Assembly (NCBI GenBank): GCA_024614665.1
Contig: GCA_024614665.1_4861.1
DNA: 64,000 nt
Reading direction: 5' to 3' (one strand)
Source of the DNA: a phage
The translations under genes were made by a program, and so were the position numbers. This document shows, one piece after another, positions 32,954-48,760 of the stretch. Every line of letters begins with the position of its first letter. Within the stretch, counting starts at the first letter, position 1. Under the pieces are notes generated by a model that saw only the letters and a program-made list of their open reading frames with translations, did no database searches and was not told the DNA's origin.

Positions 32954-35137
32954 TCACTTTGGTAATTGGTCTAGCCGGAAGCCATCCATGTCACGGTCGG
33001 CCACGCGCTCGGCAAGCGTCCACTCCTCAAATGACGTCCGCACACGGACAACGTCGATAGGCGGCTGTACCATATCGACCACAACATCCTGCTCGACCTT
33101 CACACGGATACCAGGGTAGACATTCATCCGCAACTTAATACGTTGCGGGATTGCCATTTCCTTTATCACGGGAGCGACAGGGATGGGCTTATCCGTCGTC
33201 ATGAATGAACTACGGCTCACACGCTGCACGTCTGTCAGAGGGTAAATGATATTTGTTGTATCGGCAGCCTCTGTGAGAATATCATCCAGAATCGGGATGA
33301 CTGGGTCGGTGACATCGTAGGTGTCAGAACCCATACGTGCGGCAAAATGGACAGTATACGACGAGAGTTTCGTCATTAACCGCACCATCGCGCGTTGTAT
33401 TTCAGCTTGTGAGACAGACGCACGTGTTTCCAGATTAGTGGCCACGTTTAGAGCGTCGGTGGCGATGTCCTGCCAGGTTTCCGCGGAGACTAACTCGTAA
33501 TCAAAACCAAACGTTTTAAAGAACTCGTCGTAATCGCGGTAAGGTAGGTCAAGATCGCACTTATAGTCACGGTAATGGTAGGTAAACAGCATTGTGCCGG
33601 CAGCACGGTCGGCTAGCTTGTGTCGATTATACGAGTAACGGTAACGACGACGCTTCTGCACCATGATTTCGCTAATTTCATCGTACAACTCATCTGCAGA
33701 CATCAAATTACCGATAACTTCATGATGCGTGTCCGTGTAATAGTTAATCAACGCATTAAAACGGCCGGGCCATGAACTTGGCAGATGCTGTTCCATCTCA
33801 TCAAAACCAACCCAGCGTTTGATTAGCACACCAAACACATTCCACACCGGGATTTTATCCAGTGCTACGCCAGAATAACCTTTGAAGCTCGCATACAAGA
33901 ACAGTGCCAGCAGCTCTTTTGAAGTGAGCTTTAGCGTGTCCCCGTTCGTTGGGTTAAGAATTTCGTGGTAAATGTTGTACTGTCCACGTGCCACGATATG
34001 CATCCACTCGTTGAACAAGCCATGCATAAATTCCCAACGTTCGATGGCCTCTGGGTCAATCGCCGTTACCTCAACTAACTTCGTTGGCAGGTTCGGATAC
34101 TGCGTCAAGCTCAAACGCCGATCGAGGTCTTCCTGATAGTCAGGTTCGTGCACTGGGTTATTGTACGCCAGATTGATTTCTTTCTGGATGATGTCAGTTG
34201 TGCTAACAATGTCCAGGTCACGGCCCGAGTCACGTTCAGTATAGTTAAGCGACGACTGGTAGCCGATCGGGAGTGGTGTCAGGTCATCGTCGCTGCCCGT
34301 CGTCGGGTCGTGAATCTGCTGGGCGACCTTATATCCAACAGCAGGCATACCCCAACCTGTCAGCAGGGTGTCAATCATCCAAGTAAAGATTTCTTCCTTA
34401 CCAGAGTTACGTTCCCAGTAACGGATATTGCGATACAGTGTGAATTTCTGCTTGAGGGTCAGGTACGGCATGAACTCGTGCAGTTCTTGGTGCGAAGCCA
34501 AGAACTCGGTCACGTAGTAGGAGTGCGTTTCGGTCGTAAACTGTAATCGTTTGCGGATGTACATGATAAGCCCCGGCCACACCGGGTACTGCTGCATGTA
34601 AAAGGCCAGTACGAAACAGTCGTTGTGAACTTTCCAGCCATCGGCCATGAAACGTACATGTGCCGCACGAATAAAGTTCTCAATATGTGTAATTAACGAC
34701 GTCTCCTGCGGTTCAACTAAAGCAGGATCGTAATACAAAATTGAGCAGTCATCGACACGTATCGCGTATGCAACATCAATCGGATTGAAAGTGCCGCGAA
34801 TGTATACTGCGTAGTCCGGATACTCGGCGATTAAGTCATCGATATACTCCGGGTTAGAACGATATACGTTTGAGGTCTTTTTATGACGGGAGAGGTTCTG
34901 CGTCGTTAACTCTATCTGCTCTTGCGTGTCGAGTGACGTAATGTATATCGGCTTGTCGATTGCATGTCGTTTACCTGCTAAGTGTAGGTAATACCGCCAC
35001 GTCTCACGGTTCTCGGAAACGAAACCGCCGTTTTTGGTTATTGCCAGGTTCATCTGTTGGGCGATGCTCTCTGATTTGACAATCAGGGATTTCGCTAACT
35101 GGATAGCCTGGTCACGAAAAATGTTAAATCTCTGCAT
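32954..35137 (-). CDS. large hypothetical protein, about 727 aa
   Basis: Long ORF; ATG at 35135-35137 (track uses TTG at 35149); diverges head-to-head from the 913-aa plus-strand gene. Confidence 0.6.
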   Translation of the reverse strand: MQRFNIFRDQAIQLAKSLIVKSESIAQQMNLAITKNGGFVSENRETWRYYLHLAGKRHAIDKPIYITSLDTQEQIELTTQNLSRHKKTSNVYRSNPEYIDDLIAEYPDYAVYIRGTFNPIDVAYAIRVDDCSILYYDPALVEPQETSLITHIENFIRAAHVRFMADGWKVHNDCFVLAFYMQQYPVWPGLIMYIRKRLQFTTETHSYYVTEFLASHQELHEFMPYLTLKQKFTLYRNIRYWERNSGKEEIFTWMIDTLLTGWGMPAVGYKVAQQIHDPTTGSDDDLTPLPIGYQSSLNYTERDSGRDLDIVSTTDIIQKEINLAYNNPVHEPDYQEDLDRRLSLTQYPNLPTKLVEVTAIDPEAIERWEFMHGLFNEWMHIVARGQYNIYHEILNPTNGDTLKLTSKELLALFLYASFKGYSGVALDKIPVWNVFGVLIKRWVGFDEMEQHLPSSWPGRFNALINYYTDTHHEVIGNLMSADELYDEISEIMVQKRRRYRYSYNRHKLADRAAGTMLFTYHYRDYKCDLDLPYRDYDEFFKTFGFDYELVSAETWQDIATDALNVATNLETRASVSQAEIQRAMVRLMTKLSSYTVHFAARMGSDTYDVTDPVIPILDDILTEAADTTNIIYPLTDVQRVSRSSFMTTDKPIPVAPVIKEMAIPQRIKLRMNVYPGIRVKVEQDVVVDMVQPPIDVVRVRTSFEEWTLAERVADRDMDGFRLDQLPK

Positions 35138-35148
35138 CGGAGACCCCA

Positions 35149-37890
35149 ATGGAAGATATTAGTAAATTAACGGGCGACCCCGCGGTAGCTGCCATACTGC
35201 GTAAGTCCACGAGCCCGTCGGCTCAGCAGCAACGCGGTAAGCGTGAAGATGGCGGTGTTACACCAACCCGTACAGAACTCACAGGTATCGCGAGTAGCCG
35301 CATTCGCACCGTTAAAAATGCCGAACGTATCTTTGATGCGCTCCCTGAGTTAGAGGTCATTGTTACCATCGCGACCTCCTCGCTCCTGTCCACAAAAGAT
35401 TTGATTAACACCACGCTGATTTACGACAACGTGGCGGATATCCCGATCGACCTGCGTCAACAGTTGTTAGAACCCGTGCGTGATTTCCATGACCACACGC
35501 GCCAGTTGCCCAACAAACTGTATCAGTGGATTTACGATGCACTGAAATCCAAAGGTGCGAGCCCAGTGTTGCTGATTTCAGATACCGGATTCGATGAACT
35601 CTTCGGCTTAAAGCCGTCTGTTGCAACCGAATCACTGCGCCGGAGCCAATCTGACTTCTTTGAACGTCAGTTGGGTATTCTAGGCAAGATTGGCGGTGAG
35701 AACAAACCGAAGGTTGGTGTAGAAAGTATTCTGGGCCGTGCACGTGGCGCTGACAAGCCCACCAAGCCACAAACCATTAAACTTAACTTTGCATCAGCCC
35801 CTAACAGTCCGTTTAAAGCAGACGGTATGTTAGCTTCCCTGGATATCGTTATCACCGACAACCCGCGTATTACCCTGTTACCAGAGGCTTATCGCCGTGT
35901 GGCACAGGAGAATGCTCGTACCGGCCTGTTCGGGCAGTTAGAGCAGTACGCATATGAACAACCTTCTACACCGACAGGTGCGTCAGCGTATAACGCTGAC
36001 CAGTTCACCGACAGCGAACAAGAGAAGGCAAAACTCGGTTTAATCAACATTGGCGACCTCAACGAAGCGTACCAGAAAACGCCTGAGCAAAAGCTTTACG
36101 GCGAAGTACCGAAGATGAGTTTCTCCGATGCTAACAAAATCGAATACACGGAACGATTACTGCCAGCAGAGTCCACACTCCCGCTCGTTATCGGCGACGA
36201 TGTTCGTAACCCCATAGGTTATCTGGCCATCGTTGACGAAATGGGTAACTTCATTAACTCGCGCTCCACACTTTACGGTGATGCGAACTTCATGAACTAC
36301 CTGAACAACGACGGTATGGTGGATTCAACAATCAACCGTGCAAATCTGGGGATGGGCAACACAACCCGAATCACACCAGACATTGCTAACCGCTTAACAG
36401 CGCGTTATGGTGAGATTGCTGAAGATCAGCTGACAAAAGCGTTGGGTGAGGCGTTGGGGGGTGCTGAGATTAGCATGACGGTAACCGAAACGTTCAGCCG
36501 TATCATGTTAGCGCGCCATCTGGCAAAACGTCATACGCAGGTTATTTATATTCCTGCGGAAAACCTTTGCTACTTCGCCACGGACTTTGATGAAGATGGC
36601 ATCGGTGTATCTATTACCGAACGTTCGTTCGTTATCTCTACTGTCCGTATGGCACTGTTGTTCGCTACCATGAACTCTGCGGTGTTAAACTCTGCGCGTC
36701 ACATGCAGTACGACATTGAGTTGGCACCAGATGACATGAACGGTCAGAAAACAATTGACCAGTTGAAAACAGACATCATGAACTCCTATAACCGTCGTCA
36801 ACCGATGTGGGGGGACATGAACGACACCTGGGCAATGACGACAAACGCAGGTATTGCGTTCAACGTTATCGGTAACGACTACTACGGTAGTACCAAAGTG
36901 TCTGTGTCGGATACCACGCCGGATTATAAATATCCGGATAAGGATTTCGACGAAGGTCTGTTACGCCGTACTTGCCATATCGCTGGTGTTGACCCTGACC
37001 TGGTAATGACCCCGGAGAACATCGAATTCGCTTCACAGATTTTCTCTAAATCGTTGCTGGTCACGCAACAAGTTGTTAAGAAGCAAGAGATTCTCTCTAA
37101 GCCACTGACGCGTTATGTAGTCAATGGGATGTTGGCCTCCCCGTCGTTACAATCAGCGATGATTAAAATCATTGCAGAGTATATCAATGCTAACGGCAAT
37201 GGGATGACTACTGACCAGGTTACGAAAAAGGTCTCTGAGTATCTGGCTGCCTTCATCAACGGTATGAAAGTAACCTTACCACCACCAGACACCTCAGCAG
37301 CAGCTTCGCAGATGGAGTTGTTCGATAAACGTACTGAGTTCTTTGAGAAGCTGGCTGATCTGGTTGTAACGGATGACATTGCTGCGCAACTTCAGCAGGA
37401 AGGCATCTCGATGGACCCGAACGATCTGAAGACGATGATCAAATCCTTCTATACGCGCAACTGGCTGCGTAAACAAGGCATTGAAACCGACTTCTTCGAT
37501 CTGGTTTACGACGATAAATCTCGTCAAGACAACATTACCATGATGACTGATGAAGCGATGGCTGCTTCGAAGACGCTGATTCAACTGGCGAAACGCTTTA
37601 CAGGTCGTCTGGAAACGTTGGCGAAAAATGCTGACCTTGACCCTAACGAATCTGCTGGCGGATTCAGTGGTGGTTTTGATGCGGGCGGTGACACCGGTGG
37701 CGGTGAAGGAGATCTCGGTGGTGGGGGTGACGATGATTTAGACCTCGATCTCGATACGGATGACGGAACCGACGGGGATAGTACAGGGGAAACGACTGAG
37801 TCGACCGAAACCACGGATACAACCACCGAGGGAACGGAAGGCACAGAAGACGAAGGGACTACCGACGACAACCCAGACAACGTCCTCTAA
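35149..37890 (+). CDS. large hypothetical protein, 913 aa, with acidic low-complexity C-terminal tail
   Basis: Long plus-strand ORF; GGAG SD 6 nt before ATG; C-terminal Gly/Asp/Thr/Glu-rich tail; UUCG hairpin plus U-tract terminator at 37918..37956. Confidence 0.65.
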   Translation: MEDISKLTGDPAVAAILRKSTSPSAQQQRGKREDGGVTPTRTELTGIASSRIRTVKNAERIFDALPELEVIVTIATSSLLSTKDLINTTLIYDNVADIPIDLRQQLLEPVRDFHDHTRQLPNKLYQWIYDALKSKGASPVLLISDTGFDELFGLKPSVATESLRRSQSDFFERQLGILGKIGGENKPKVGVESILGRARGADKPTKPQTIKLNFASAPNSPFKADGMLASLDIVITDNPRITLLPEAYRRVAQENARTGLFGQLEQYAYEQPSTPTGASAYNADQFTDSEQEKAKLGLINIGDLNEAYQKTPEQKLYGEVPKMSFSDANKIEYTERLLPAESTLPLVIGDDVRNPIGYLAIVDEMGNFINSRSTLYGDANFMNYLNNDGMVDSTINRANLGMGNTTRITPDIANRLTARYGEIAEDQLTKALGEALGGAEISMTVTETFSRIMLARHLAKRHTQVIYIPAENLCYFATDFDEDGIGVSITERSFVISTVRMALLFATMNSAVLNSARHMQYDIELAPDDMNGQKTIDQLKTDIMNSYNRRQPMWGDMNDTWAMTTNAGIAFNVIGNDYYGSTKVSVSDTTPDYKYPDKDFDEGLLRRTCHIAGVDPDLVMTPENIEFASQIFSKSLLVTQQVVKKQEILSKPLTRYVVNGMLASPSLQSAMIKIIAEYINANGNGMTTDQVTKKVSEYLAAFINGMKVTLPPPDTSAAASQMELFDKRTEFFEKLADLVVTDDIAAQLQQEGISMDPNDLKTMIKSFYTRNWLRKQGIETDFFDLVYDDKSRQDNITMMTDEAMAASKTLIQLAKRFTGRLETLAKNADLDPNESAGGFSGGFDAGGDTGGGEGDLGGGGDDDLDLDLDTDDGTDGDSTGETTESTETTDTTTEGTEGTEDEGTTDDNPDNVL

Positions 37891-37917
37891 ACAAAAAAAA
37901 GAAAAAGAAATAAGGTT

Positions 37918-37956
37918 TACCTCTCCCTTCGGGGAGAGGTACCTTTTCTTTTTTTA
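37918..37956. terminator. bidirectional UUCG hairpin terminator with U-tracts on both strands
   Basis: ACCTCTCCC-TTCG-GGGAGAGGT then TTTTCTTTTTTT on plus; A-run before it serves the convergent minus gene. Confidence 0.65.
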
Positions 37957-38256
37957 ATCTTCTGTAGCAGCTTTAGGTTTATTAACCAGTTCGTCGAGCA
38001 TGATACCAATCGCCAGAGGGTCGTTCTGGAAAGGTTCTAGCTTTTCCAATACCTTTGTATCCTTTGCTGCTTTTAACGCCTTCAGGAGGCCTTTACGGGC
38101 GTTATAGAAGATTTGCCAGCGACGCCCATGACTGATCGCGGTTTTGGCTTTGTGGAAGTCGGCTAAGAAAGCTTCAGTCGCTTTGTTTTCAGGTAACTCA
38201 AAGCGAAAACGCACACTACGCTCAAAATCCATGTTGACAACAATGAACTTTACCAT
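37954..38256 (-). CDS. hypothetical protein, 100 aa
   Basis: ORF track. Confidence 0.5.
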   Translation of the reverse strand: MVKFIVVNMDFERSVRFRFELPENKATEAFLADFHKAKTAISHGRRWQIFYNARKGLLKALKAAKDTKVLEKLEPFQNDPLAIGIMLDELVNKPKAATED

Positions 38257-38290
38257 GCTCGAACCTCATTATAGAGCTACTCTATAATAA

Positions 38291-38557
38291 TTACGCCAGT
38301 GTAATGTGGTACTTATCAATGTCAGGGAATCGCTCTTTGATCATCCCGCAGAACATATCTAGCACCGGATCAGTTTTTGCGGCCTTCTCCATCTCAGGAA
38401 AAACGCTACGCAGTGGCACGCCAGGGTTCTGCCCTGCCGTTTTCTTAAGCTCTTCTTTATACTTTGCCAACAGAGATTTAACCCCAGCTGTCTTCGGGAA
38501 GCCACACCCTGCGACCCCATCGTTTTCAAAATAGATTACTGCTTCAACACTAGACAT
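38291..38557 (-). CDS. hypothetical protein, about 88 aa
   Basis: ATG at 38555-38557 with AAGGAG SD. Confidence 0.5.
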   Translation of the reverse strand: MSSVEAVIYFENDGVAGCGFPKTAGVKSLLAKYKEELKKTAGQNPGVPLRSVFPEMEKAAKTDPVLDMFCGMIKERFPDIDKYHITLA

Positions 38558-38596
38558 TTTAATACTCCTTTTCATGATAAAATAAAAAATAATAAT

Positions 38597-38615
38597 AGGA
38601 GACCCGAAGGTCTCC
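38597..38615 (-). terminator. UUCG-loop hairpin terminator
   Basis: GGAGACC-CGAA-GGTCTCC with U-rich tract; downstream of 38623..40299. Confidence 0.55.
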
Positions 38616-38622
38616 GTATTAC

Positions 38623-40299
38623 TTAGTACAACACTGGTGCAGTTTTCTCACCATTGCTCAGAAGCAAGTAAGTGTGCTGCGGCAGCTGCATCAATACAAT
38701 TGCATGTGGCACGTTTTCCTGTACTGCTTCGTAGATAGACACAACCGGGTCTGCGGTATTGCCCAGAGACGCTACCGTAACTACGTCGTGTTTATCAACA
38801 GAATGGTACATGCCTGGAATCACGATGGTGAACTGGCTCTGAATCAGATTAACCACCTTGCCAGAATCGCTCAGCTTGATAGTCAGTTTGCGCAGAGAGT
38901 TTGCTACCATCAGGAACAGGTCACGGAACCAGTCTTCATATTCACTTACGCCGTTGTCGCCAGCGGTTGCTGTGAACAGATCTTTTACGAAGAAATCAAT
39001 ATCGCTGATTTTCCGTTCGAAATCGATAGCTTTGAACTTCGGCACATCTTTACCACGCTTAGTGCCCAGCGACAGCGCGTTGTGTACCAGGAAAGTGATA
39101 TTCGCCAGGTACGCATTAGCAAAGCGAGAAATTTCACTGATAACCACTTCTGCTTCGCTGCTGTTCGCAATCGCATATTCGTGCAGTTCTTTCGTGTTCT
39201 TACGCAGTTCATCGATCGTGCGTTTCACCTTAGCCATGATAGTTTCAACATCTTCTACCAACGCCAAGTTGTCGAGATCGGATTTCAGTGCGTCGTGCTT
39301 AGCAACGAATTGTTTCATGCGTTCGCACATGTCAGTGTTAACACCGACCAGATACGCGCGATAGCTATCCCGTGCACGCACAATCAGGTCAGCCCCGTCG
39401 TAGAAAACAACCTCTTCATTACCGTTAAAGATATCTTGCAACGGTGTAGCCCAATCACGCGTTTCCGCGTAAACAGATTGCTTAATGCGACTGTTAGCTT
39501 CCTTCGCTGGAATCGACATTTTAAGCTCGGGGGTTTTCAGCTCGTGAAGTGCGTAGTCTTCCATCAAATCAATCTCCTGCAGAATGTTGTTAATTGGGCC
39601 ATTGGTAGTGTCCTTCTCGGTTTCTTCTGTTGCGCCGAGTGGGGAAAGCACTGGGTTATTAACTGTAGCGTTAGACACCGGCATTGGTTGTACAGGCACC
39701 TGTGCTGGTTCAGGCTGGGGCTGTTGTGCTGTGGCTGGGACTACTTGCGCCGGTTGTGGGTTCAGGATAGGATCACTAACCAGGTTAAGACCTGCACCGC
39801 CAGCAATCACGGTTAGTGCCGCATCTGTGTTACCAATCTTAACACCGCCGGATGGCGCAGAAGACATGGTCAGGCCATCAGTAACACGGACACCGCCAGA
39901 ACTGTTACCGCCCAGTAACCCGCCTGCGTTGCTACCACCACCTAAACCACCACTGCCACCCAAACCGCCGGACTGCTGAGAACGAATTTCGGCAAGAATC
40001 TTACCGACTTGTTCCCAAGCATTAACCAGTTTGGTGTGACGATCGTCGTTATACGCGTCGCCCGCGTTATGCACCTGCTGATAGGCAGCTGCTTTATACG
40101 CGTCGACCGCATATGCGATAACCTGTGCTTCACTACCCCCTTTGGATGCTGCCCATGCCGCAACATACGTCGCAATCTTTAACGCCTGATCTGGCGGAAT
40201 GCTACGACTACGCATCACGTTATTCAACTGCGACAGTACCGCGTCCTGATCGAGGTGTTTAACGATGACGTTTTTGATTTGTTCAACAGTAATGCTCAT
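38623..40299 (-). CDS. hypothetical protein with internal Gly-rich and Pro/Gln-rich linker, 558 aa
   Basis: Long ORF; CTTAAGGAGTATT SD context; two folded regions joined by low-complexity linker. Confidence 0.6.
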   Translation of the reverse strand: MSITVEQIKNVIVKHLDQDAVLSQLNNVMRSRSIPPDQALKIATYVAAWAASKGGSEAQVIAYAVDAYKAAAYQQVHNAGDAYNDDRHTKLVNAWEQVGKILAEIRSQQSGGLGGSGGLGGGSNAGGLLGGNSSGGVRVTDGLTMSSAPSGGVKIGNTDAALTVIAGGAGLNLVSDPILNPQPAQVVPATAQQPQPEPAQVPVQPMPVSNATVNNPVLSPLGATEETEKDTTNGPINNILQEIDLMEDYALHELKTPELKMSIPAKEANSRIKQSVYAETRDWATPLQDIFNGNEEVVFYDGADLIVRARDSYRAYLVGVNTDMCERMKQFVAKHDALKSDLDNLALVEDVETIMAKVKRTIDELRKNTKELHEYAIANSSEAEVVISEISRFANAYLANITFLVHNALSLGTKRGKDVPKFKAIDFERKISDIDFFVKDLFTATAGDNGVSEYEDWFRDLFLMVANSLRKLTIKLSDSGKVVNLIQSQFTIVIPGMYHSVDKHDVVTVASLGNTADPVVSIYEAVQENVPHAIVLMQLPQHTYLLLSNGEKTAPVLY

Positions 40300-40330
40300 T
40301 GTAAATAATACTCCTTAAGAGATGTAATAA

Positions 40331-42109
40331 TTAGCGGCCGATTTTAGCAATGTCTTCTTCGGTCGGTCTGATGTACGGGTCCAGTTTAGGATTCCGCATC
40401 ATTACCAAACTTGGGTTGGTCTTCATGTACGGGTTGAGGATGTTTGCCTTAAACGGTGCCGACTTAGGAATATAGTAGACGTTACCGCATTCCAGATGCG
40501 ACGCGGATGCGTGCTTAGTACGGTCGTTCAAGTTAACGGTCTTGCCTCCTTTCTTCGAACGCTTAGCATCGGTTTCGGTTTGACCGATGGCGTGCGTAGA
40601 CACTGCCAATACCATTGATTCTGTAGAGGCATTGAAGAAACTGATACCGCCGTTGCTCGTAATGGTGCGCATCACCAGATTGAGCACGATCTGTTTGTTC
40701 AGTGCGTCTCGAATAGACTTCGCCGCTGTCTCTGGAGTCCGATGTTCCAACTGCCCCAGCTTCCAACGTATTTTCGAGATCGTTGTGGTAAAGCCACGTT
40801 GACCCAACAGTAGGTAATCGGTTACCGTGAGACGTTTTCCGTACATAGACGGAATATCATCTTGCTTGGTAAGTCGAGTGCGTACCATCAGCTGCGTGGT
40901 ATACCAGAGGAAATCAAACATATCCAAATCATCAGGGATGGACGGATCGTTTGCCATCAGCTCACCACGGAAGGTGCTGTTGACATAGCGTTCACATTCC
41001 TGGAAGTGGCTGTCCATACTGCGACTCAGTTCGATATCCGAAGGCTTCAGTCCGCGAATACTGCGGCCCAACACTTCACGCCAAGACGCTGCAGAGTTGA
41101 GGTTTGCAATATCTTCGTCCATTGCCATTTCATTAATCTGTGTAAACAGCCCCGGTAGTGTTGGTGCACGACCGTTCTTACTGTTCTGTTTACCTGCGTA
41201 GTAGTGCGCTGCTTTGAAGAACGCAGCAGTCGCTACCAGCAACAGATGTTCGTTTTGATCCCAACGCCCTGCATCGGTGTTAGGCATATCTTCACGTTTA
41301 ACCAACAATACGTACTGGATGGTCTTCGCGAGTTGTGGCTCACCAGATTGAATCACCACATACTTCGTTAAGTCCACATCACGCACTTTAATCGCTGGCC
41401 AAATCGCCACATCAACGCCCGCATAACGCTTCACGGCTTGTTTAAAGCCATAACGCCCAAAGAGCCAATACATCAGTGGCTTCTCATCTGTGTCGTGTCC
41501 AATCTGTCCAGTGGAGACAAACAGATTCGATGTACCCGGCAAGAACAGCTGCTCAGGGCGACCATTCACCAGAATCTTCGTTGGTTTCTTACAGAACTTG
41601 ATAGACACCTTGCGAGTGAAGTCAAAGTTAATAAAGATACCGCCGTGCTCACGACATATACCAGGTTGATGGATTACAGGTGCTACGTGGTACGTTGTAC
41701 CATAGTAGTTCATTAAGCCGCCACGACGAATAAACGGCAGGCTCATTGGTCGTTGCACCGGGCGAGGATCACCTGGAACTCGGAACGAGGCCATTACCAT
41801 ATACGTGTCAGTGGATGAGATGTTAATAATTGACCGGCCACGATTATTTCGTGAATTGTTATCCGACTTCGATAACTTAAAGATAAAAGCTTCAAACGGC
41901 GACATTTGGCGACAACCTAATACCGTTAACCCTTCTGGTAATTTCGGGTTATCGATTTCATCATACGTCAACTCACGACGTAGAATGGTTGCCACACGAT
42001 CATGTATCCCATCTTTAGCTTGTGTGTACCCAACTCCTTCTGCAATTGCACGATTAAAAGGCACTATTTCGCCTGCCTCTTTAATCTTCCTAATCGCATC
42101 TTTAAACAC
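40331..42109 (-). CDS. large hypothetical protein, 592 aa
   Basis: Long ORF track. Confidence 0.6.
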   Translation of the reverse strand: MFKDAIRKIKEAGEIVPFNRAIAEGVGYTQAKDGIHDRVATILRRELTYDEIDNPKLPEGLTVLGCRQMSPFEAFIFKLSKSDNNSRNNRGRSIINISSTDTYMVMASFRVPGDPRPVQRPMSLPFIRRGGLMNYYGTTYHVAPVIHQPGICREHGGIFINFDFTRKVSIKFCKKPTKILVNGRPEQLFLPGTSNLFVSTGQIGHDTDEKPLMYWLFGRYGFKQAVKRYAGVDVAIWPAIKVRDVDLTKYVVIQSGEPQLAKTIQYVLLVKREDMPNTDAGRWDQNEHLLLVATAAFFKAAHYYAGKQNSKNGRAPTLPGLFTQINEMAMDEDIANLNSAASWREVLGRSIRGLKPSDIELSRSMDSHFQECERYVNSTFRGELMANDPSIPDDLDMFDFLWYTTQLMVRTRLTKQDDIPSMYGKRLTVTDYLLLGQRGFTTTISKIRWKLGQLEHRTPETAAKSIRDALNKQIVLNLVMRTITSNGGISFFNASTESMVLAVSTHAIGQTETDAKRSKKGGKTVNLNDRTKHASASHLECGNVYYIPKSAPFKANILNPYMKTNPSLVMMRNPKLDPYIRPTEEDIAKIGR

Positions 42110-42120
42110 ACCGGCCTCCC

Positions 42121-43125
42121 TCAGAGAATCATCCCAACGAGTGCTACCCCTGCAGCCAAATACGCGGGAATGGATTTCAAGAACTCCGAGCTATCTTTTC
42201 GCTGATAAGCTCGGGACTCGTATTGGTCTTTACGAACATCGGAACGCAACTTAAGCTCATTCGTCTGGATTGCGTTAAGGGTGTTAATCCTCTCCTTCTC
42301 CAGCGCCAGATTATTAAGTTGCGTACGATAATCGAGGTCTTGCCGATTCTTTTTCTCATCGAGATCTTGCAACTTGGCCTGATACGTGGCTTCCAGCTTC
42401 GCACGAACATCTCGCAACTCTGGAATGTTATCGAGCCACCGATAACGCCTCGCTTCTTCTTCAGATGCAAACGCCCGGAACGGGGACATCGGGTCATCGA
42501 AAGCGTACATTATCATTTTACCCCCTTCGACACACTCCGCACCACCGATTACCATGTAAATACCCTCGTCGTAATACTTCGATCGAATCGGTTCGACTTC
42601 CAACATCGTTGTATAGAACCTCAGCCACTTTAAAGGTGCTGGGTCTTCGTACTTCTGCACAACTACCACGCCCAAGGCAAATTCTTTACGATCCCCTCCT
42701 GGCTTACCAATAACCTCAGAATCGAGTTTTACTGGTTGAGTAGAGAAAGCCATTCCTAGCTTTTTCAACACCACCAAGTCGCCTCGCATTAACGCACCGA
42801 TATCATCAACTACATACATCAGCGTTGTTTCGCCGTTCGTAGTTAATTCCTTACATATCTGCGCATACTGCTTTGGCGAATGTGCGTCGCGCAAACCAGA
42901 TAGGTTAGCACCGTTCGCAAACACCGTATAGGTCACGTAAATCACAATCCCAAATTCCGCCGCTGTGGTGGACGACGGGGCTAAAACAAAATGCCCGCCA
43001 CTGAGTTCAGTGACGTAAATGGGAAACCCGGTATTATTTTCGTACGTGATAGTCTTCGACACGGCACCACGGTGCATGGGCCGCTGGGTTAGCGTTGGCT
43101 GAACGTCTAAATCATAACGGTTCAT
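42121..43125 (-). CDS. protein with coiled-coil region and C-terminal TM anchor, about 335 aa
   Basis: ATG at 43123-43125; C-terminal IPAYLAAGVALVGMIL; downstream of class-2 promoter motif. Confidence 0.55.
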   Translation of the reverse strand: MNRYDLDVQPTLTQRPMHRGAVSKTITYENNTGFPIYVTELSGGHFVLAPSSTTAAEFGIVIYVTYTVFANGANLSGLRDAHSPKQYAQICKELTTNGETTLMYVVDDIGALMRGDLVVLKKLGMAFSTQPVKLDSEVIGKPGGDRKEFALGVVVVQKYEDPAPLKWLRFYTTMLEVEPIRSKYYDEGIYMVIGGAECVEGGKMIMYAFDDPMSPFRAFASEEEARRYRWLDNIPELRDVRAKLEATYQAKLQDLDEKKNRQDLDYRTQLNNLALEKERINTLNAIQTNELKLRSDVRKDQYESRAYQRKDSSEFLKSIPAYLAAGVALVGMIL

Positions 43126-43166
43126 TGAGCATCCCAGTAATAATACCAAAAGAATTATTCACGTAG

Positions 43167-43183
43167 ATAATATCTATCTCAGA
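43167..43183 (-). promoter_or_regulatory. class-2 promoter-like motif
   Basis: mRNA sense CTGAGATAGATATTATC; upstream of 42121..43125. Confidence 0.4.
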
Positions 43184-43191
43184 TTACTTTG

Positions 43192-43216
43192 GGCACGGGT
43201 TCATACCCAGTGCCCG
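43192..43216 (-). terminator. hairpin (imperfect)
   Basis: GGGCACGGGT...ACCCAGTGCCC downstream of 43231..43929. Confidence 0.35.
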
Positions 43217-43230
43217 TAACGTAAAAAACT

Positions 43231-43929
43231 TTAGGGTATTAGGCGTTGGGCTATTTCGCGGAGTTGGTCGCGGGTTAAATCAGCCAACTTCTGGTCGCCG
43301 AAGCCCAACTTCAGACCCAGCTCGTACCCAGCTTGCGGATACGTGTTCGTGTTTGCTACTGAGAGGAGTGCATCGGCTATCTTTACCATCGTTAACTCGA
43401 GAGACGCATACGGGGCGGGGATCGGCTGATTCACGATTTGGTAATTATAACGCACTGCGGCGTTATCGTAGTCAAACTCCATCCTTCTGCCGAGAACGTT
43501 AAACGACTCCGCAGAATAACTACCAAATGGGTGATTGGCTTTTTCCCACAAATCTTTCCGTTCAGTAAACCCAGTCGCGAAGTTCTGACGTATGGTGTCG
43601 AATATTTGCGTTGCCTGGCTAGGGTGTATATTTTTCAGCTCATTGTAGTCGTAGTCGGCGATGGAATATAGAGTGAACACAACACCGTTTATATTTAACT
43701 GCGGATAATCCATCCGCAGACTGTCATCACCTTGTAAATGAAGTTCCCACATCCTTACCCACTGCAATATCGCGCTTACCGCATCGTGACTGAGATAAAA
43801 ATTAGTAGGTTCTTCAGGATTTTCACGGAAGGGAACAGAGCATTCCGATACAAAAAAGCCGGCTGCCATAAATCCTCTGCCGTCGAACATAGGCGCAACT
43901 AATCTTGATTTTTCTAAATTGATTACCAT
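43231..43929 (-). CDS. hypothetical protein, 232 aa
   Basis: ORF with TTAAGGAG SD; downstream of class-2 promoter motif. Confidence 0.6.
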   Translation of the reverse strand: MVINLEKSRLVAPMFDGRGFMAAGFFVSECSVPFRENPEEPTNFYLSHDAVSAILQWVRMWELHLQGDDSLRMDYPQLNINGVVFTLYSIADYDYNELKNIHPSQATQIFDTIRQNFATGFTERKDLWEKANHPFGSYSAESFNVLGRRMEFDYDNAAVRYNYQIVNQPIPAPYASLELTMVKIADALLSVANTNTYPQAGYELGLKLGFGDQKLADLTRDQLREIAQRLIP

Positions 43930-43970
43930 TACTGTCTCCTTAAGTTAAAACCGAACGACTCTCTCCCTAA

Positions 43971-43989
43971 GATAATATCTATCTATAAA
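43971..43989 (-). promoter_or_regulatory. class-2 promoter-like motif
   Basis: mRNA sense TTTATAGATAGATATTATC; upstream of 43231..43929. Confidence 0.4.
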
Positions 43990-44006
43990 TTTTTAGAAAA
44001 AAAGAA

Positions 44007-44030
44007 AAAGCTTACTCCCCGAAGGGAGTA
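44007..44030 (-). terminator. UUCG-loop hairpin terminator
   Basis: GCTTACTCCC-CGAA-GGGAGTAAGC with U-run; downstream of the 766-aa gene. Confidence 0.65.
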
Positions 44031-44064
44031 AGCTAATCTTAGGCAACGTAATCCTTACGGATTA

Positions 44065-46365
44065 TTAGCCGCCAGCGCCTTCACCGCCAGTACCTGGCTG
44101 GGTAGCACCGCCGCCAACATCACCAGCATTACCACCGTCAGTACCGCCGGTGCCGTTGGAAGTAGTAGTGACGTTGAACGCCAGTTTCTCTTCCACGAAC
44201 TTGGTGATACCTTTAATCCAGATCAGACCAGTGATCGGGCAGTGGCAGATGTGCGCGTTACGAGGCTGTACTGCCAGCTCTTTGCTGGTAGCGCCGTTAC
44301 GCTGGATGTTGATGTTGGTTACCATGATCGGAGACCAGAAGTGGTTACCCCAGTTCAGAACACAGTAAGAACCATCATCAGCGGTTGGAACTTTCAGAAC
44401 CCACTGCAGGCGGCGAGTCCAGCTGCCGTCAGCTTCGTTCTTCACACGCCAGCGGTCATCGTTGGTGGTGATAACTTCGTACTCGTAGCGATCGCCCAGC
44501 AGACGCTGGTCGCCCTGAACCAGCAGCAGCATTGCAGCAGTCGGTTCGTCAGTTGCGATAACAACTTTCGGCAGTGCGTTCGGGTCCGCAGTCAGCAGGC
44601 GCAGAGCCGGCATGAAGCGAGAGTCCTGGATAGCACGAGTTACCTGGTCACCGATACGCTGTACCAGACCCTGACGGGCGTTGATGAGCGCATCTTTGGT
44701 ATCCAGAGACTGGATCACTTTGTCCACTTCGTAGTCGCTTTCGCTGTACCACGGAGCAACCCAGTGACGGCCCAGGCCGCGGATAGCAGGTTTGTCCCAC
44801 GGAGTGATCATGGACGCAGCTGCGTTCTTAACCGCTTCGGTGTAAGACAGAGTCTGAGTGATAGCCAGCATTTCGTTACGGATGTTAACCGCAGAAACGA
44901 GGTCGTCCAGACGTTCGGTGTCGTCGTATTCAACGCCAACCGGAGATTTGGTCATGATCGGAGAACCGTACTGCAGTTTGTAGTTCTCTTGTTCCCAAAT
45001 CGGGTCGAGCAGAAGGCCCTGGGTTCTCCGGTTCTCGTTGGTACGAGTACCGTCGAAGCGCCAGCCCAGCAGCTCCAGTTTCAGGTTGTCGATGATGACT
45101 TTGCCGGTGCCGCTTTCGATATCAACAGCAGTACCAGTTGCATCGTACAGACCTTCGATTTCCAGAGACGGTGCAGTCACGTCAACACGACCAGAGAACT
45201 GACCGTTGGTGAACAGAGACATGCTGATGTTCATGGAATAACGAATGGTGTAATCGTTCTGTGCCAGAGCGGCCAGTGCCGGGATTTCAGCACCTTTCCA
45301 GTCCAGAGACTTGGCGTTCAGGGAGAACACAGTGCGACGGAACTGCAGGACCAGCTCACGACCATCACCTTCAGGAGGACGCTGGAAGGTAGCGAACTGC
45401 ATGTCGCGTACGTTCAGTTTGATCAGCGCACCATCTTTCGCTTCTTCGCTCGGCTTACGCACAGACAGCAGCAGGCTACCCAGCGCTGCACCCGGTGCGA
45501 TTTCGTCGGTTTCATCGTAACCTTCCTGCACGATACCCGGATGGGCAGACAGCTGGAACAGGTTCAGACGACGCTCAGAGAAGCTCAGGTAGTTGGTCGG
45601 ATACGCCGGCACACGACCCAGCTGAACGTTTTCGTTTTCGATGATGTCTTCGGATACGAAGAACTTCGCGTTCTCACCGGTTTCCATCACGTAAGGTACG
45701 ATACGGATAGCATCGTCCTGCAGGACTTTGTGGTTAGACAGCGCGTTATGCAGCGGCTGACGGTTGTCTTCAACCACGTCTTTGGTCAGCAGGGCGTTCA
45801 GGATACCACGAGTTACAGTAGTAACTTTGGTACGAACGGTGATGCCGACGTCGTTGGTGTCCACAGTGATGGTCGGGAACAGGGTTTCTGCAAACTTGGA
45901 TTGAGTTTCCAGAGCACGCACGTTCAGCGTCCAGGTCAGACCCAGGTTTTTGTCCAGGTCTTTGTTGGTGTAGTATTCGGTTGCGACCAGCGGAGTTTTA
46001 CCGTAGTCAGCAGCCAGGGATGCTGCACCAGAAATAGCGATCGGCATATAGCTGGCGTATTCCGGCTTCGCGCTCTCAGCAGCAACACGGGTCATGAAGT
46101 CATCTTCGTGACCGGCAGCAGCCAGAATCATCGCAGAAGCAACCTGAGCAGCGTGGCTCATGGTTTTGCCAGGGTTTACAGCTTCGTAGTGCTGCTGAGC
46201 AGTGTCACGCAGGTTGGTGAAGCCGGCAGCATTTTTACGTACAGATTCGCCAACGGCTACGGTTTGCCATACGTCATTAGCGGAAGAGCCTGCCTTGGCA
46301 GCAGCGACCAGAGCATTGCCCTGCTGAACCAGCTGGTCCAGACTAGCGATACGGGTATCTTTCAT
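44065..46365 (-). CDS. highly expressed large structural-like protein (candidate major capsid or tail sheath), 766 aa, Gly-rich C-terminus
   Basis: Strong codon bias (few stops on the opposite strand, giving a 715-aa shadow ORF); flanked by promoter motif and hairpin terminator. Confidence 0.65.
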   Translation of the reverse strand: MKDTRIASLDQLVQQGNALVAAAKAGSSANDVWQTVAVGESVRKNAAGFTNLRDTAQQHYEAVNPGKTMSHAAQVASAMILAAAGHEDDFMTRVAAESAKPEYASYMPIAISGAASLAADYGKTPLVATEYYTNKDLDKNLGLTWTLNVRALETQSKFAETLFPTITVDTNDVGITVRTKVTTVTRGILNALLTKDVVEDNRQPLHNALSNHKVLQDDAIRIVPYVMETGENAKFFVSEDIIENENVQLGRVPAYPTNYLSFSERRLNLFQLSAHPGIVQEGYDETDEIAPGAALGSLLLSVRKPSEEAKDGALIKLNVRDMQFATFQRPPEGDGRELVLQFRRTVFSLNAKSLDWKGAEIPALAALAQNDYTIRYSMNISMSLFTNGQFSGRVDVTAPSLEIEGLYDATGTAVDIESGTGKVIIDNLKLELLGWRFDGTRTNENRRTQGLLLDPIWEQENYKLQYGSPIMTKSPVGVEYDDTERLDDLVSAVNIRNEMLAITQTLSYTEAVKNAAASMITPWDKPAIRGLGRHWVAPWYSESDYEVDKVIQSLDTKDALINARQGLVQRIGDQVTRAIQDSRFMPALRLLTADPNALPKVVIATDEPTAAMLLLVQGDQRLLGDRYEYEVITTNDDRWRVKNEADGSWTRRLQWVLKVPTADDGSYCVLNWGNHFWSPIMVTNINIQRNGATSKELAVQPRNAHICHCPITGLIWIKGITKFVEEKLAFNVTTTSNGTGGTDGGNAGDVGGGATQPGTGGEGAGG

Positions 46366-46377
46366 TTCAAGTTTACC

Positions 46378-46902
46378 TTATTTAGATAAATGACATGCGT
46401 ACAACTGCGTCAGCACTTCGTGCGCAGCAAACTGCGTCGACGTACTGAACGTATCATCCACGACACGAGTCTTGGGACGCATATATTTAAAAAGTTCTGC
46501 GCAGAACATCTTTTTCGCAGCGTGGTCTTCACTTAAAGAAAAACCCGGTCCGGATTTAGCTTCTGCAAAAGACGCCACAACAACATCGCCACGTTGTGAG
46601 AACACCCAACGTAAACGACCGTCGAATGATTCCCCATATAAATCAGCAAGGGTTTCATTCGTACCTTTCTCAACCAGGTTTAAGACCTGGTCATAATAAA
46701 GAGTCGGAAGTGCAGGTGGTGCCATAATCGATTTATAAATCGAAATAGGGTCACTCACTGGCAGTATGATGGAACTAAAGCCCGACGAGCAGTCATATAA
46801 CCAGTTAAAGAAGCTTGCTTGGAGTTCCTCCAACTTTTTAACGCCAGCCCCTTTATCTATGTTAGATTGAACTTCCCACGGTGGACTAAAACGAATTTGC
46901 AT
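46378..46902 (-). CDS. hypothetical protein, about 174 aa
   Basis: ATG at 46900-46902; start only 14 nt from the ATG of the divergent plus-strand gene. Confidence 0.5.
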   Translation of the reverse strand: MQIRFSPPWEVQSNIDKGAGVKKLEELQASFFNWLYDCSSGFSSIILPVSDPISIYKSIMAPPALPTLYYDQVLNLVEKGTNETLADLYGESFDGRLRWVFSQRGDVVVASFAEAKSGPGFSLSEDHAAKKMFCAELFKYMRPKTRVVDDTFSTSTQFAAHEVLTQLYACHLSK

Positions 46903-46916
46903 TTTAAGGATGCTCC

Positions 46917-48479
46917 ATGAATAGTAAAATGATGTTGATAACCGCCTTAGCCGCACTGTATACAGAATCTATGCTGACGGACCCTAGCAAGGATCATGAT
47001 GTCATAAGAAAAGTTCTGATGCAGATCAAGCTTCCGGAATATGCGGAAGATGGCGAAGAGCGCTTTGCACTCATCGAGATCAAGGACATTATCACATCTA
47101 TCATAGACGGCGGCATGGAATACGACCACGCGAGCGTTATGAAGCGCTTGAAGCTGGCCACCACTCAAGTACGTCCTCTATACGATACGATTACCAAATT
47201 CCTCGAAGACGATTTGCCCGAGGAAGAAGACAAACGTACCGAGCATCTTAATCGACAACTGTCTCAATATTATTTCCAATTACGTCAATGTTTACAGAGC
47301 GTCGAACTCAAAACAAAAATGGGTCGCGCGTTCGGAGCATTGAATGGAACTGAGACACGTGTTGATCTGAACACCGCAGTGCTCGAACTCAAAGAGGCGC
47401 TATCTACGTTCGGTGAACGCTCTCATAATAAGATTCCATCACTGGTCGGTGAGCTGGTTACAGATAATCGGGCTCCGTTTGTTAAAGTGTTCGACTCGAT
47501 TAACAAGAAAGCAGCAGGTAATGGTTTGCAGACGGGCTGGAAAGCCATTAACCAAATGCTCGGTTGTAACAAAGGGATTACCGAAGAACTGTGGCTAATG
47601 CCGGCGTTACCTTTTAACTGTAAGTCTTTGTTCAGTCTCTTGCTGAGCTTATCGATTCCTATCTTCAACACGCCTGAGAAAGTAATGGCGGATGTGAAGG
47701 GCACACTGCAACCAATTATTCTTGACTTGAGTTTAGAAAACGAACTCGACGTTAACTTAGCTTACGGCTATCAAGCTCTGTACGGTCATTTTGAAGGACA
47801 AGTTCCACAGATGACCATTTCACAGGATGCAACCGCTGAAGAGAAGTTAGCACACACAACAGCAATGTCTGATTACCTCTGTGGTAAGATTCGCGCAAAC
47901 GGTTGGGACTACGTTTTCCAAAAGCACACCAACTCCGATTTTAAAGTGCACTACATCAACGACCTTATTCTCGACTTACGTCGTCGCGGTTATCATGTTG
48001 TTGGCATTCGCGCAGACTACTTAGGCACAATCAGCAAAGCAGGACACGGCAACGGTATTGCCGGGAGTGATATCAAAGAAATTTATCGTATTGCTCGTAA
48101 CATTCAAGTGGTGCGCAACCGTGGGTTCTTAATTGCCCCACACCAGATTTCCCCAGAAGGTAAGCGCTTAAAAGCGTTAGACCCGGTAGGTTTCTGTAAG
48201 AACTTACCTGGTCGTGGTCTTTACGATAGTTGTTCGAGCCTTGATAACGAGGCCGATGGTGAAATGTATTTTAACAAGCGTGTGGTCAACGGCCATAGCT
48301 TCTTAGAAGTTCAACGCGGTAAGCACCGCACCATTATCGATACTAAAGAATCTTATCACTACACAGTGATACCTTTCCAGGATGTTGGCATCCTGCCTTG
48401 GGATTGTGATAAAGAAGAAACCGTAACAGCGTCGTCTATCAACTTCTTCACCGGTGGAATGGGTGATGATTTGTTCTAA
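46917..48479 (+). CDS. large hypothetical protein, 520 aa
   Basis: Long plus-strand ORF; AAGGA SD 6 nt before ATG; hairpin 48489..48508 after stop. Confidence 0.6.
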   Translation: MNSKMMLITALAALYTESMLTDPSKDHDVIRKVLMQIKLPEYAEDGEERFALIEIKDIITSIIDGGMEYDHASVMKRLKLATTQVRPLYDTITKFLEDDLPEEEDKRTEHLNRQLSQYYFQLRQCLQSVELKTKMGRAFGALNGTETRVDLNTAVLELKEALSTFGERSHNKIPSLVGELVTDNRAPFVKVFDSINKKAAGNGLQTGWKAINQMLGCNKGITEELWLMPALPFNCKSLFSLLLSLSIPIFNTPEKVMADVKGTLQPIILDLSLENELDVNLAYGYQALYGHFEGQVPQMTISQDATAEEKLAHTTAMSDYLCGKIRANGWDYVFQKHTNSDFKVHYINDLILDLRRRGYHVVGIRADYLGTISKAGHGNGIAGSDIKEIYRIARNIQVVRNRGFLIAPHQISPEGKRLKALDPVGFCKNLPGRGLYDSCSSLDNEADGEMYFNKRVVNGHSFLEVQRGKHRTIIDTKESYHYTVIPFQDVGILPWDCDKEETVTASSINFFTGGMGDDLF

Positions 48480-48488
48480 CGAACACTG

Positions 48489-48508
48489 GGGAGCTTAGGC
48501 TCCCCTAC
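48489..48508 (+). terminator. hairpin after plus-strand gene (weak U-tract)
   Basis: GGGGAGC-TTAG-GCTCCCC 10 nt after stop of 46917..48479; no U-run, so possibly leaky. Confidence 0.35.
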
Positions 48509-48571
48509 GGGCAGTTTATGCGTCCTGCCAAGATCAAAAAAAAAATACGACGAACTATTTATATGCATGGA

Positions 48572-48598
48572 ATTACCCGAGTGTTCCAGCACTCGGGT
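48572..48598. terminator. hairpin ACCCGAGTG-TTCCAG-CACTCGGGT
   Basis: Perfect 9-bp stem between the plus gene end and small ORF B; A10 run at 48538..48547. Confidence 0.4.
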
Positions 48599-48613
48599 AA
48601 GAGTTATTTCATG

Positions 48614-48760
48614 TTAACTTTTGTTTAGTAGTATTTCACCTCCTAAACCCTTGATACGACGAACAGTGTTCTGCTTGGGCGCAGTCAACTGTTGTACACG
48701 TTGGTTGAATTGGGTTTGCTTAACGTAATAGTTAAGTATTTGCGAACGTAGTTGTTCCAT
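48614..48760 (-). CDS. small Gln-rich protein, 48 aa (MEQLRSQILNYYVKQTQFNQRVQQLTAPKQNTVRRIKGLGGEILLNKS); paralog of 48873..49019
   Basis: AAGGAGG SD 7 nt before ATG; conserved C-terminal IKGLGG(D/E)I..NK shared with tandem neighbour; absent from ORF track at full-length start. Confidence 0.5.
   Translation of the reverse strand: MEQLRSQILNYYVKQTQFNQRVQQLTAPKQNTVRRIKGLGGEILLNKS

Follow-up and report, generated by a model that had tools for sequence, protein, structure and literature searches.

In a 64,000-nucleotide stretch of phage DNA (contig GCA_024614665.1_4861.1 of NCBI GenBank assembly GCA_024614665.1; hereafter the window), the genes encoding the portal protein and a DnaB-like replicative helicase appear as two single inverted genes within a long co-directional gene array. 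Their start codons lie 11 and 14 nt from those of the divergent neighbours. The promoters of both genes are almost certainly located inside the neighbour's coding sequence. Both genes are very likely self-contained cassettes with embedded promoters of a phage RNA polymerase. The arrangement as such is already known: it is annotated in GenBank, conserved family-wide, mapped for the portal gene of phage phiKZ, and largely expected. New are the recognition of the spacers as paired ribosome-binding sites, their extreme and conserved compaction, the statistics of TATG conservation and avoidance, and the predicted transcription start sites (TSSs).

The two head-to-head pairs and the adjoining capsid gene are as follows.

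32954–35137, minus strand: gene for a 727-aa virion protein ('virion structural protein 9' of phage SPN3US, gp82 by position), homologue of phiKZ gp128; pair 1.
35149–37890, plus strand: portal protein gene, 913 aa, gp81 of SPN3US; pair 1.
46378–46902, minus strand: 174-aa gene, gp74 by position, heading the major-capsid operon; pair 2.
46917–48479, plus strand: gene for the DnaB-like replicative helicase, 520 aa, gp73 by position; pair 2.
44065–46365, minus strand: major capsid protein gene gp75, 766 aa ('major head protein' in RefSeq), 12 nt 3' of the 174-aa gene.

A stretch of 5 kb around the site of the observation shares 99.4% identity with Enterobacteria phage SEGD1 and 99.2% with Salmonella phage SPN3US, in reverse-complement orientation relative to these two records. 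By nucleotide identity and gene order, the window belongs to an SPN3US-type (Seoulvirus), phiKZ-like jumbo phage. One 606-bp difference from SPN3US adjoins the capsid gene; the layout of coding sequences is otherwise the same, and the RefSeq record of SPN3US contains the same four coding sequences of the two pairs with identical start codons. In SPN3US, gp75 is the major capsid protein, while gp81 is the portal protein, found in 12 copies per virion and carrying a long N-terminal propeptide detected by mass spectrometry (PMC5694885). According to the earlier description, the 64 kb contain no plus-strand genes other than those for portal and helicase, and the SPN3US annotation of the whole matching region agrees. 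The remaining plus-strand open reading frames (ORFs) of the window, including one of 715 aa antisense to the capsid gene, are located inside minus-strand genes.

The preliminary description had also given the distances between the start codons of the two pairs as 11 and 14 nt, and both were confirmed. In the first pair, the minus-strand ATG (CAT at 35135–35137) and the plus-strand ATG (35149–35151) are separated by CGGAGACCCCA. In the second pair, the corresponding codons at 46900–46902 and 46917–46919 enclose TTTAAGGATGCTCC. The ORF sizes counted from these ATGs, 913 and 520 aa on the plus strand and 727 and 174 aa on the minus strand, are those reported earlier. The spacers are composed as follows.

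35138–35148, no strand assigned: 11-nt spacer CGGAGACCCCA, two back-to-back ribosome-binding sites.
46903–46916, no strand assigned: 14-nt spacer TTTAAGGATGCTCC, two back-to-back ribosome-binding sites.

Namely, the portal spacer contains GGAG(A) 6 nt before the portal ATG on the plus strand and GGGG(T) 7 nt before the ATG of the 727-aa gene on the minus strand; in phages CR5 and EarlPhillipIV, GGAG is present in both directions (TGGAGACAACTCCGG). The helicase spacer contains AAGGA 7 nt before the helicase ATG and, on the opposite strand, GGAG 10 nt before the ATG of the 174-aa gene. The earlier statement that the spacers are too small for a promoter is correct: their 11 and 14 nt are filled by two Shine-Dalgarno elements, with no space for a leader either, and do not provide the intergenic DNA needed for two sigma-70 promoters of the −35/−10 type. 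Two further head-to-head pairs were noticed in SPN3US. One of them, located just outside the window (50881/50907 of the SPN3US record), has a 25-nt spacer, CATTAACTCCGGAGTTTAGTTAAAA, in which the palindrome CTCCGGAG gives GGAG to each strand. The other one, at the DNA polymerase gene (43008/43079), has a spacer of 70 nt.

An ordinary divergent promoter region would be gained if one partner of each pair started further downstream than annotated. The helicase gene does possess in-frame ATGs at codons 5 and 6, and ORF lists cannot fix starts. Against this, a Shine-Dalgarno element is positioned 6–10 nt upstream of each annotated ATG, and the residues encoded by the first codons are kept, while synonymous exchanges (for example AAT/AAC and AAA/AAG) occur. 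The PHROG profiles align from residues 1–4, the alignment with gp128 is colinear from residue 4, and the N-terminal propeptide of the portal protein was detected by mass spectrometry (PMC5694885). A helicase start at codon 6 would add just 15 nt. Mis-assigned starts are thus a very improbable explanation. The ORF list also contains longer minus-strand frames starting with TTG at 35149 and GTG at 46956. These extensions are not conserved in frame, since the spacers of relatives measure 11, 12, 13, 14, and 15 nt and do not differ by multiples of three.

All four pair members are real genes. Each of them (4/4) matches a PHROG family from end to end. The portal protein is 99.9% identical to that of SPN3US and gives a full-length match to phrog_3004 (1099 bits, residues 4–909). 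The helicase, 100% identical to the SPN3US protein, matches phrog_3213 as well as the Pfam family PF20307 (divDNAB) with a score of 416 bits where the cut-off is 26 (E = 1.2e-124, residues 150–517). The 727-aa protein matches phrog_3222 end to end and shares 29% identity with PHIKZ128 over 640 aa (BLASTP, E = 1e-89), colinear from residue 4. The 174-aa protein gives an end-to-end match to phrog_8266. Long antisense ORFs do occur in the window, the 715-aa frame opposite the capsid gene being an example, and one member of each pair might by analogy be spurious. This possibility deserves almost no credence: the family matches are specific for all four proteins, homologues with 22–29% identity occur across phiKZ-like phages, and the frames remain open across the sampled genera at ~50% synonymous divergence. 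In addition, mass spectrometry or annotation identifies as virion proteins both the portal protein and the homologues that the 727-aa protein has in phiKZ and 201phi2-1.

Conservation of the layout was assessed in 11 portal-pair and 17 helicase-pair sequences of the SPN3US clade, the window included. These represented at least six genera, with genomes from Seoulvirus, Erskinevirus, Machinavirus, Wellingtonvirus, Derbicusvirus, and uncultivated relatives and with portal protein identities down to 53%. Loss of one reading frame in relatives had been named at the outset as the observation that would expose a spurious ORF. The frames are open in all 11 and all 17 sequences. The gap measures 11–15 nt in 11/11 portal pairs and 11–14 nt in 17/17 helicase pairs. 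The core GGAGAC of the portal spacer is invariant in 11/11 genomes. The core of the helicase spacer, AAGG(A/T)TGCTCC, occurs as AAGGATGCTCC in 16 of the 17 genomes and as AAGGTTGCTCC in CR5. Synonymous sites of the flanking genes are only ~50% identical in the same set of sequences; spacing and spacer cores were kept despite this divergence, which shows that the head-to-head arrangement is not due to chance. It is a real, selected, family-wide feature and a compacted member of a known layout. Divergent pairs are present also in phages phiKZ, 201phi2-1, PCH45, and RSL2, with the following gaps.

phiKZ: portal pair 35 nt, helicase pair 211 nt.
201phi2-1: portal pair 35 nt.
PCH45: portal pair 24 nt, helicase pair 49 nt.
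RSL2: portal pair annotated as an overlap, helicase pair 141 nt.

The 211-nt helicase-pair spacer of phiKZ carries TATG in both directions, back to back. In the 49-nt spacer of PCH45 one TATG is left, and the 14-nt spacer of the window contains none. The simplest reading of these comparisons is that the spacer was progressively compacted in the SPN3US clade, and that TATG cores in the flanking codons would have taken over the promoter function.

That the promoters of the portal and helicase genes lie inside their neighbours is close to a logical necessity, because the entire plus strand upstream of both genes is coding sequence of minus-strand genes and the spacers are occupied by Shine-Dalgarno elements. 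For the orthologous portal gene this has already been demonstrated by the ONT-cappable-seq map of phiKZ (Putzeys et al., 2024; PMC10914365; supplement of bioRxiv 10.1101/2023.10.13.562163), since the mapped TSS P070 is located inside PHIKZ128. The phiKZ portal gene PHIKZ129 (coding sequence 130364–133054) forms the monocistronic unit TU100, which starts with P070 at 130258. This position precedes the ATG by 106 nt and falls 70 nt within the divergent coding sequence PHIKZ128 (128154–130328). P070 is classed as a late promoter and has the sequence ...ATCAAATTTTATGA (...AAATTTTATGA). TU100 ends at the intrinsic terminator T060 (133099), which overlaps the opposite-strand terminator T059 (133067) of the convergent gene (PMC10914365). 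Late promoters of phiKZ need only T(−3)ATG(+1); the phage-encoded non-virion RNA polymerase (nvRNAP) initiates at these promoters in vitro and requires all four bases (PMC7598289). Given that late and middle promoters of the phiKZ type need little beyond TATG, they could be written into a coding sequence on either strand.

Within the portal pair, two candidate promoter cores and one terminator were recognised.

34882–34885, plus strand: candidate nvRNAP promoter core TTTTTATGAC, directed at the portal gene; predicted TSS ~34885, 264-nt leader.
35951–35954, minus strand: candidate promoter core for the 727-aa gene, TATG within CATATG, inside the portal gene; weak.
37918–37941, no strand assigned: bidirectional intrinsic terminator TACCTCTCCC-TTCG-GGGAGAGGTA, flanked by the stops of the portal gene (37890) and of a convergent 100-aa gene (37954).

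The TATG at 34882 is placed antisense in codons 84–85 of the 727-aa gene. Of the plus-strand TATG motifs in the part of gp82 that was aligned ahead of the portal gene (~1.4 kb), it alone is kept in 11/11 genomes. It is also one of only three plus-strand copies of TATGAC in 64 kb, and its core TTTTATGA(C) is the same as that of the mapped phiKZ portal promoter P070. Only one synonymous position (CAT) is involved at this site, so support for it is moderate. On the minus strand, CATA at 35951 is kept in 11/11 genomes within an otherwise variable stretch of the portal protein. This candidate is uncertain because of the long distance to the gene and a possible constraint at the protein level.

Other sequence elements near the portal gene were considered and rejected. 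At the codons homologous to the position of P070 (gp128 codons 24–25), no TATG is present in the SPN3US clade, and the conserved inverted repeat GATTTnAnAATC found there is explained by the conserved peptide LI(V/F)KS. The TATG located 33 nt before the portal ATG in Asesino-type genomes reads AATG in the window and is absent in other genera; it was therefore not accepted as the general promoter.

The predicted terminator at 37918–37941 has the features expected of a bidirectional intrinsic terminator, i.e., a stable GC-rich hairpin, an upstream A-run, a downstream T-run, and a position between convergent stops. It was detected on both strands with folding energies of −27.2 and −26.0 kcal/mol. 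The A-run/hairpin/T-run structure is kept in 9/9 relatives checked, one of them phiKZ, whose copy is the mapped pair T059/T060. Six bidirectional intrinsic terminators between convergent genes have been mapped in phiKZ and 15 in 201phi2-1. The predicted element resembles them in its GC-rich hairpin, its A- and T-runs, and the 41–63 nt between convergent stops. The portal gene is predicted to be a monocistronic inverted cassette.

The following candidates were found in and around the helicase pair.

46839–46861, plus strand: candidate middle-type helicase promoter, TAAC-N15-TATG; predicted TSS ~46861, 56-nt leader.
47003–47006, minus strand: candidate core TTCTTATGAC, directed at the 174-aa gene and capsid operon; predicted TSS ~47003, 101-nt leader.
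47424–47427, minus strand: second TATG within the helicase gene, GGAATCTTATTATGAG (TTATTATGAG), located 522 nt upstream of the 174-aa gene.
46638–46635, minus strand: candidate internal capsid promoter core GATTTATATGGG, inside the 174-aa gene, 270 nt upstream of the capsid ATG.
46695–46692, minus strand: candidate internal capsid promoter core TTATTATGAC, inside the 174-aa gene, 327 nt upstream of the capsid ATG.
48488–48505 and 48573–48600, no strand assigned: terminator-like hairpins between the helicase stop and the convergent small minus-strand genes.

The candidate helicase promoter lies antisense in codons 14–22 of the 174-aa gene, with the core TTATCTATGT at 46858. This TATG occurs in 16/16 genomes together with the invariant 'AC ATA GAT AA'. 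Synonymous identity in the 174-aa gene is 0.84–0.90 over codons 1–24, in comparison to 0.40–0.52 over codons 37–59, and the stretch of high identity coincides with the predicted promoter and leader of the helicase gene. The upstream half of the element reads TAAC, a variant which alone is at chance frequency; its distance from the core agrees with TTAC-N15-TATG, both halves are conserved, and CR5 has a perfect TTAC. The TATG at 47006–47003, antisense in helicase codons 29–31, is present in 16/16 genomes, and the rare codons ATA and AGA that form it are invariant (GTC ATA AGA). The second minus-strand TATG (47427–47424) is likewise kept in 16/16 genomes within fourteen invariant bases, CAT AAT AAG ATT CC, which include four synonymous sites; local synonymous identity is 0.78–0.81. 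Both cores inside the 174-aa gene (46635 and 46692) are located on its sense strand and occur in 16/16 genomes each, GAT TTA TAT GGG being invariant at 4/4 synonymous sites. The candidates at 34882 (+), 46858 (+), 47006–47003 (−), and 47427–47424 (−) all show the TATG core and A/T-rich upstream flank of late promoters. Constraint beyond the encoded protein is evident overall from the 4-mer conservation and the invariant rare codons ATA and AGA, and less clear for the 34882 site taken singly, with its one synonymous position.

We place somewhat better than even confidence in each of the predicted TSSs at 34885 and 46861, and less in the predicted minus-strand positions.

The behaviour of TATG in the window as a whole is that of a functional signal, and its fully conserved sites point toward each partner. 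When the four genes are aligned by codons, the fully conserved fraction is larger for TATG/CATA than for any other of 136 4-mers (7/27, or 26%, versus a background of 3.5%; p = 3e-5), with the overlapping 4-mers ATGA and TTAT ranking next. In 38 intergenic gaps, the transcribed strand carries 16 copies of TATG and the opposite strand a single one. Within 87 coding sequences it is depleted relative to synonymous-codon shuffles, both in sense (170 versus 262 expected) and in antisense orientation (53 versus 104), and ranks third and sixth, respectively, among 256 4-mers. A general TpA effect does not account for this depletion, because ATAT is barely depleted (0.83). The hexamer TATGAC was rejected as an over-represented motif (21 observed versus 29 expected), and its information lies solely in the strand bias of 18 to 3. 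In the same shuffles, GATC (ratio 0.44), AATT (0.57), and CTAG (0.66) are strongly depleted, and the Shine-Dalgarno-like GGAG/GAGG is depleted also. Dam or restriction pressure exerted by the enterobacterial host may underlie the avoidance of GATC.

Two further motifs were scanned for in the window. TTAC-N14-16-TATG, which resembles the layout of phiKZ middle promoters with their AT-rich or TTAC element ~20–24 nt ahead of a TATG-like start, occurs 10 times, always on the minus (transcribed) strand, versus 5.9 expected on both strands (6733, 11136, 15917, 21864, 32562, 32944, 43202, 52056, 52431, and 58709). Several of these matches are located just upstream of gene starts; the one at 32944 is merely a start codon. 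The phiKZ promoter specificities appear to carry over to the phage of the window, as judged from the AT-rich early motif (~13–16 nt in phiKZ-type promoters). In the form TTCAGATATATATTAC it has seven copies with at most three mismatches, versus 0.56 expected, all on the minus strand (2682, 6775, 15511, 21824, 23319, 51044, and 59547); degenerate copies were seen near 43180 and 43990. Within the inspected intergenic gaps the copies come after a terminator hairpin, and their core AGATATATATTAC is identical to that of P089, an early (virion RNA polymerase) promoter of phiKZ. A scan of the window revealed no plus-strand copy of this motif upstream of the portal or helicase gene; therefore, the two plus-strand genes were not classed as early.

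Host RNA polymerase with sigma-70 could in principle use −35/−10 promoters overlapping the partner's first codons, and one 9-of-12 match does extend across the helicase junction on the minus strand (46928–46901). Matches of this kind are, nevertheless, fewer than by chance in 34000–49500 (14 versus 18.1 in shuffles). Development of phiKZ is independent of host RNA polymerase (PMC7598289), and the phage of the window encodes beta-type RNA polymerase subunits and carries early promoters of the phiKZ type. Use of host promoters is highly unlikely on these grounds, and we infer that the polymerase acting on both pairs is the phage's own nvRNAP.

Transcription of each plus-strand gene would accordingly be initiated by a phage RNA polymerase at a promoter embedded antisense in the coding sequence of the divergent neighbour. 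The leader would cross the neighbour's first codons and reach the Shine-Dalgarno element in the 11- or 14-nt spacer, and the transcript would end at a hairpin terminator that the convergent gene beyond it uses as well. Since the inverted genes interrupt minus-strand transcription, the partners downstream need either their own promoters or read-through of the terminator. The shared terminator would separate the gp128-like gene, as well as the operon of the 174-aa and capsid genes, from upstream transcription, and antisense promoters embedded in the inverted gene most likely start transcription of these partners anew. Expression of the capsid gene depends on promoters located upstream of or inside the 174-aa gene. 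The interpretation given in the preliminary description, that promoters lie inside the opposite coding sequence unless one partner is translated from a read-through transcript, is supported by the conserved TATG cores, the portal terminator, and the precedent of P070.

Read-through would mean that the minus-strand partners lack promoters of their own and are translated from long transcripts leaking through the hairpins across the inverted gene. Several observations are consistent with this. The phiKZ map lists no TSS or transcription unit for PHIKZ128/127, the 727-aa gene has a single conserved candidate, at a distance of 814 nt, and an early promoter is located upstream on the same strand (51044–51059). 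Also, the hairpins behind the helicase gene have poor T-tails on the minus strand and are less canonical than the portal terminator, although Huxley, CR5, and PCH45 possess strong hairpins with an A-run at the equivalent position. Against leakage stands the strong bidirectional terminator (−26 to −27 kcal/mol) behind the portal gene, conserved in every relative checked and mapped as a real pair in phiKZ. In phiKZ, the 211-nt spacer contains the model late promoter p119L (P063, 117616), from which the unit comprising gp119 and the capsid gene is transcribed, the TSSs P064–P068 inside gp119 drive the capsid gene, and P062 (117303) is antisense inside the helicase coding sequence (PMC10914365). 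Capsid protein is the most abundantly needed late product, and leakage through a terminator is an unlikely supply. Moreover, the invariant rare codons in the helicase gene form antisense TATG cores. The two plus-strand genes have no upstream plus-strand gene, and read-through is inapplicable to them. For the minus-strand partners taken together we consider read-through unlikely, embedded promoters being preferred. The proposed promoter is least certain for the 727-aa gene, which may be expressed by read-through.

Several points weigh against embedded TATG promoters. Enrichment of TATG 20–60 nt upstream of gene starts is not significant (11 versus 7.5 expected, p ~0.13 in mononucleotide shuffles); therefore, the argument is carried by strand asymmetry and depletion in coding regions. 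TATG is a 4-mer, and the portal-directed copy, backed by one synonymous position, has flanks that differ between genera. The portal TSS of phiKZ and the candidate of the window occupy non-homologous codons (gp128 codons 24–25 versus codons 84–85), and 201phi2-1 has no plus-strand TATG within 400 nt of the portal gene. The only conserved candidate for the 727-aa gene, at 35954–35951, is 814 nt upstream of its ATG, and the phiKZ map reports no TSS for PHIKZ128. Approximately one fifth of the mapped phiKZ TSSs are without a recognised motif; therefore, the real promoters here could be motif-less too. No mapping of transcript ends for SPN3US or close relatives was found in the literature searched. 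The different positions of the portal promoter in phiKZ and the SPN3US clade fit promoters of low information content that turn over easily.

In comparison with PHIKZ128/129, the portal pair consists of orthologous genes (E = 1e-89 for the 727-aa protein and gp128; 24% identity for the portal proteins) in the same head-to-head orientation, with the core TTTTATGA(C) and a bidirectional hairpin terminator at the convergent end. In both phages the portal gene is a single-gene unit with its promoter in the partner's coding sequence, as mapped in phiKZ and predicted here. The differences concern the spacer, which is 35 nt in phiKZ and 11 nt here, and the start site, which is 70 nt inside gp128 in phiKZ and 252 nt inside the partner for the present candidate; these positions are not homologous. 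The helicase pair resembles PHIKZ_p43 and gp119–gp120 of phiKZ in that a gene for a DnaB-like helicase diverges from a gene of ~175 aa heading the major-capsid operon. TATG-type promoters serve this operon in phiKZ and are predicted for it in the window, with additional sites, mapped or candidate, within the small gene and, in antisense orientation, within that of the helicase. The 174-aa protein was rejected as a homologue of phiKZ gp119, to which it shows no detectable similarity (BLASTP E = 1.2; hhalign probability 0.2%); it is a positional analogue only. The 211-nt spacer of phiKZ contains back-to-back TATG motifs, whereas the 14-nt spacer contains none, so that their counterparts here have to be embedded, in facing orientation. 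The predicted promoters of the helicase and 174-aa genes are placed in this way, and the 5' ends of the two mRNAs would share 143 complementary nt.

Face-to-face overlapping promoters with transcriptional interference are known from pR/pL of coliphage 186. The predicted geometry is similar, with facing promoters over ~140 bp and complementary 5' ends of the RNAs. In contrast, the 186 promoters are host sigma-70 promoters in a dedicated regulatory region and serve the lysis/lysogeny decision, whereas those in the window are predicted phage-polymerase promoters inside coding sequence. It is conceivable, if rather doubtful, that the collapse of the gaps to 11–15 nt converted the back-to-back promoters seen in phiKZ into facing ones and thereby created a built-in timing switch between helicase and capsid. 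The middle helicase promoter and the late capsid promoter would then fire through each other across ~143 bp, and the complementary 5' leaders would cover both ribosome-binding sites. Rising late capsid transcription would shut off the helicase gene by transcriptional interference or antisense pairing, and the portal and gp128-like genes could be coupled likewise.

If the promoters are embedded as proposed, a phage with its own RNA polymerase and minimal promoters can dispense with intergenic control regions, and a divergent gap may shrink to two ribosome-binding sites. The first ~30–90 codons of the 174-aa, gp128-like, and helicase genes probably hold promoters or leaders of the opposite gene. 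'Silent' recoding, amber mutations, or deletions in these regions may act polarly on the portal, helicase, or capsid genes. Also, the depletion of TATG combined with a few conserved sites offers a practical way of predicting late and middle promoters in a clade for which bioinformatic prediction has been regarded as impossible.

The neighbourhood of the two pairs contains several other ORFs. The capsid gene (44065–46365, minus strand) has zero TTA, CTA, and TCA codons, and for this reason the 715-aa plus-strand ORF (44242–46389) can span it antisense without a stop. In the capsid genes of relatives, these three codons number 0 in CR5 and RSL2 and 1 in Huxley and PCH45; phiKZ has 43 CTA. The 715-aa ORF is most likely a shadow of extreme codon bias and not a third plus-strand gene. 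Another plus-strand frame, of 380 aa (38674–39816), is antisense within a 558-aa gene (38623–40299) and is probably a shadow ORF too. Between the capsid gene and the next gene, an intact 232-aa ORF (43231–43929, minus strand) has no Pfam match but belongs to phrog_15414, a family of unknown function. It is preceded by a degenerate element resembling an early promoter, and in SPN3US a deletion of ~606 bp leaves only its first ~35 codons.

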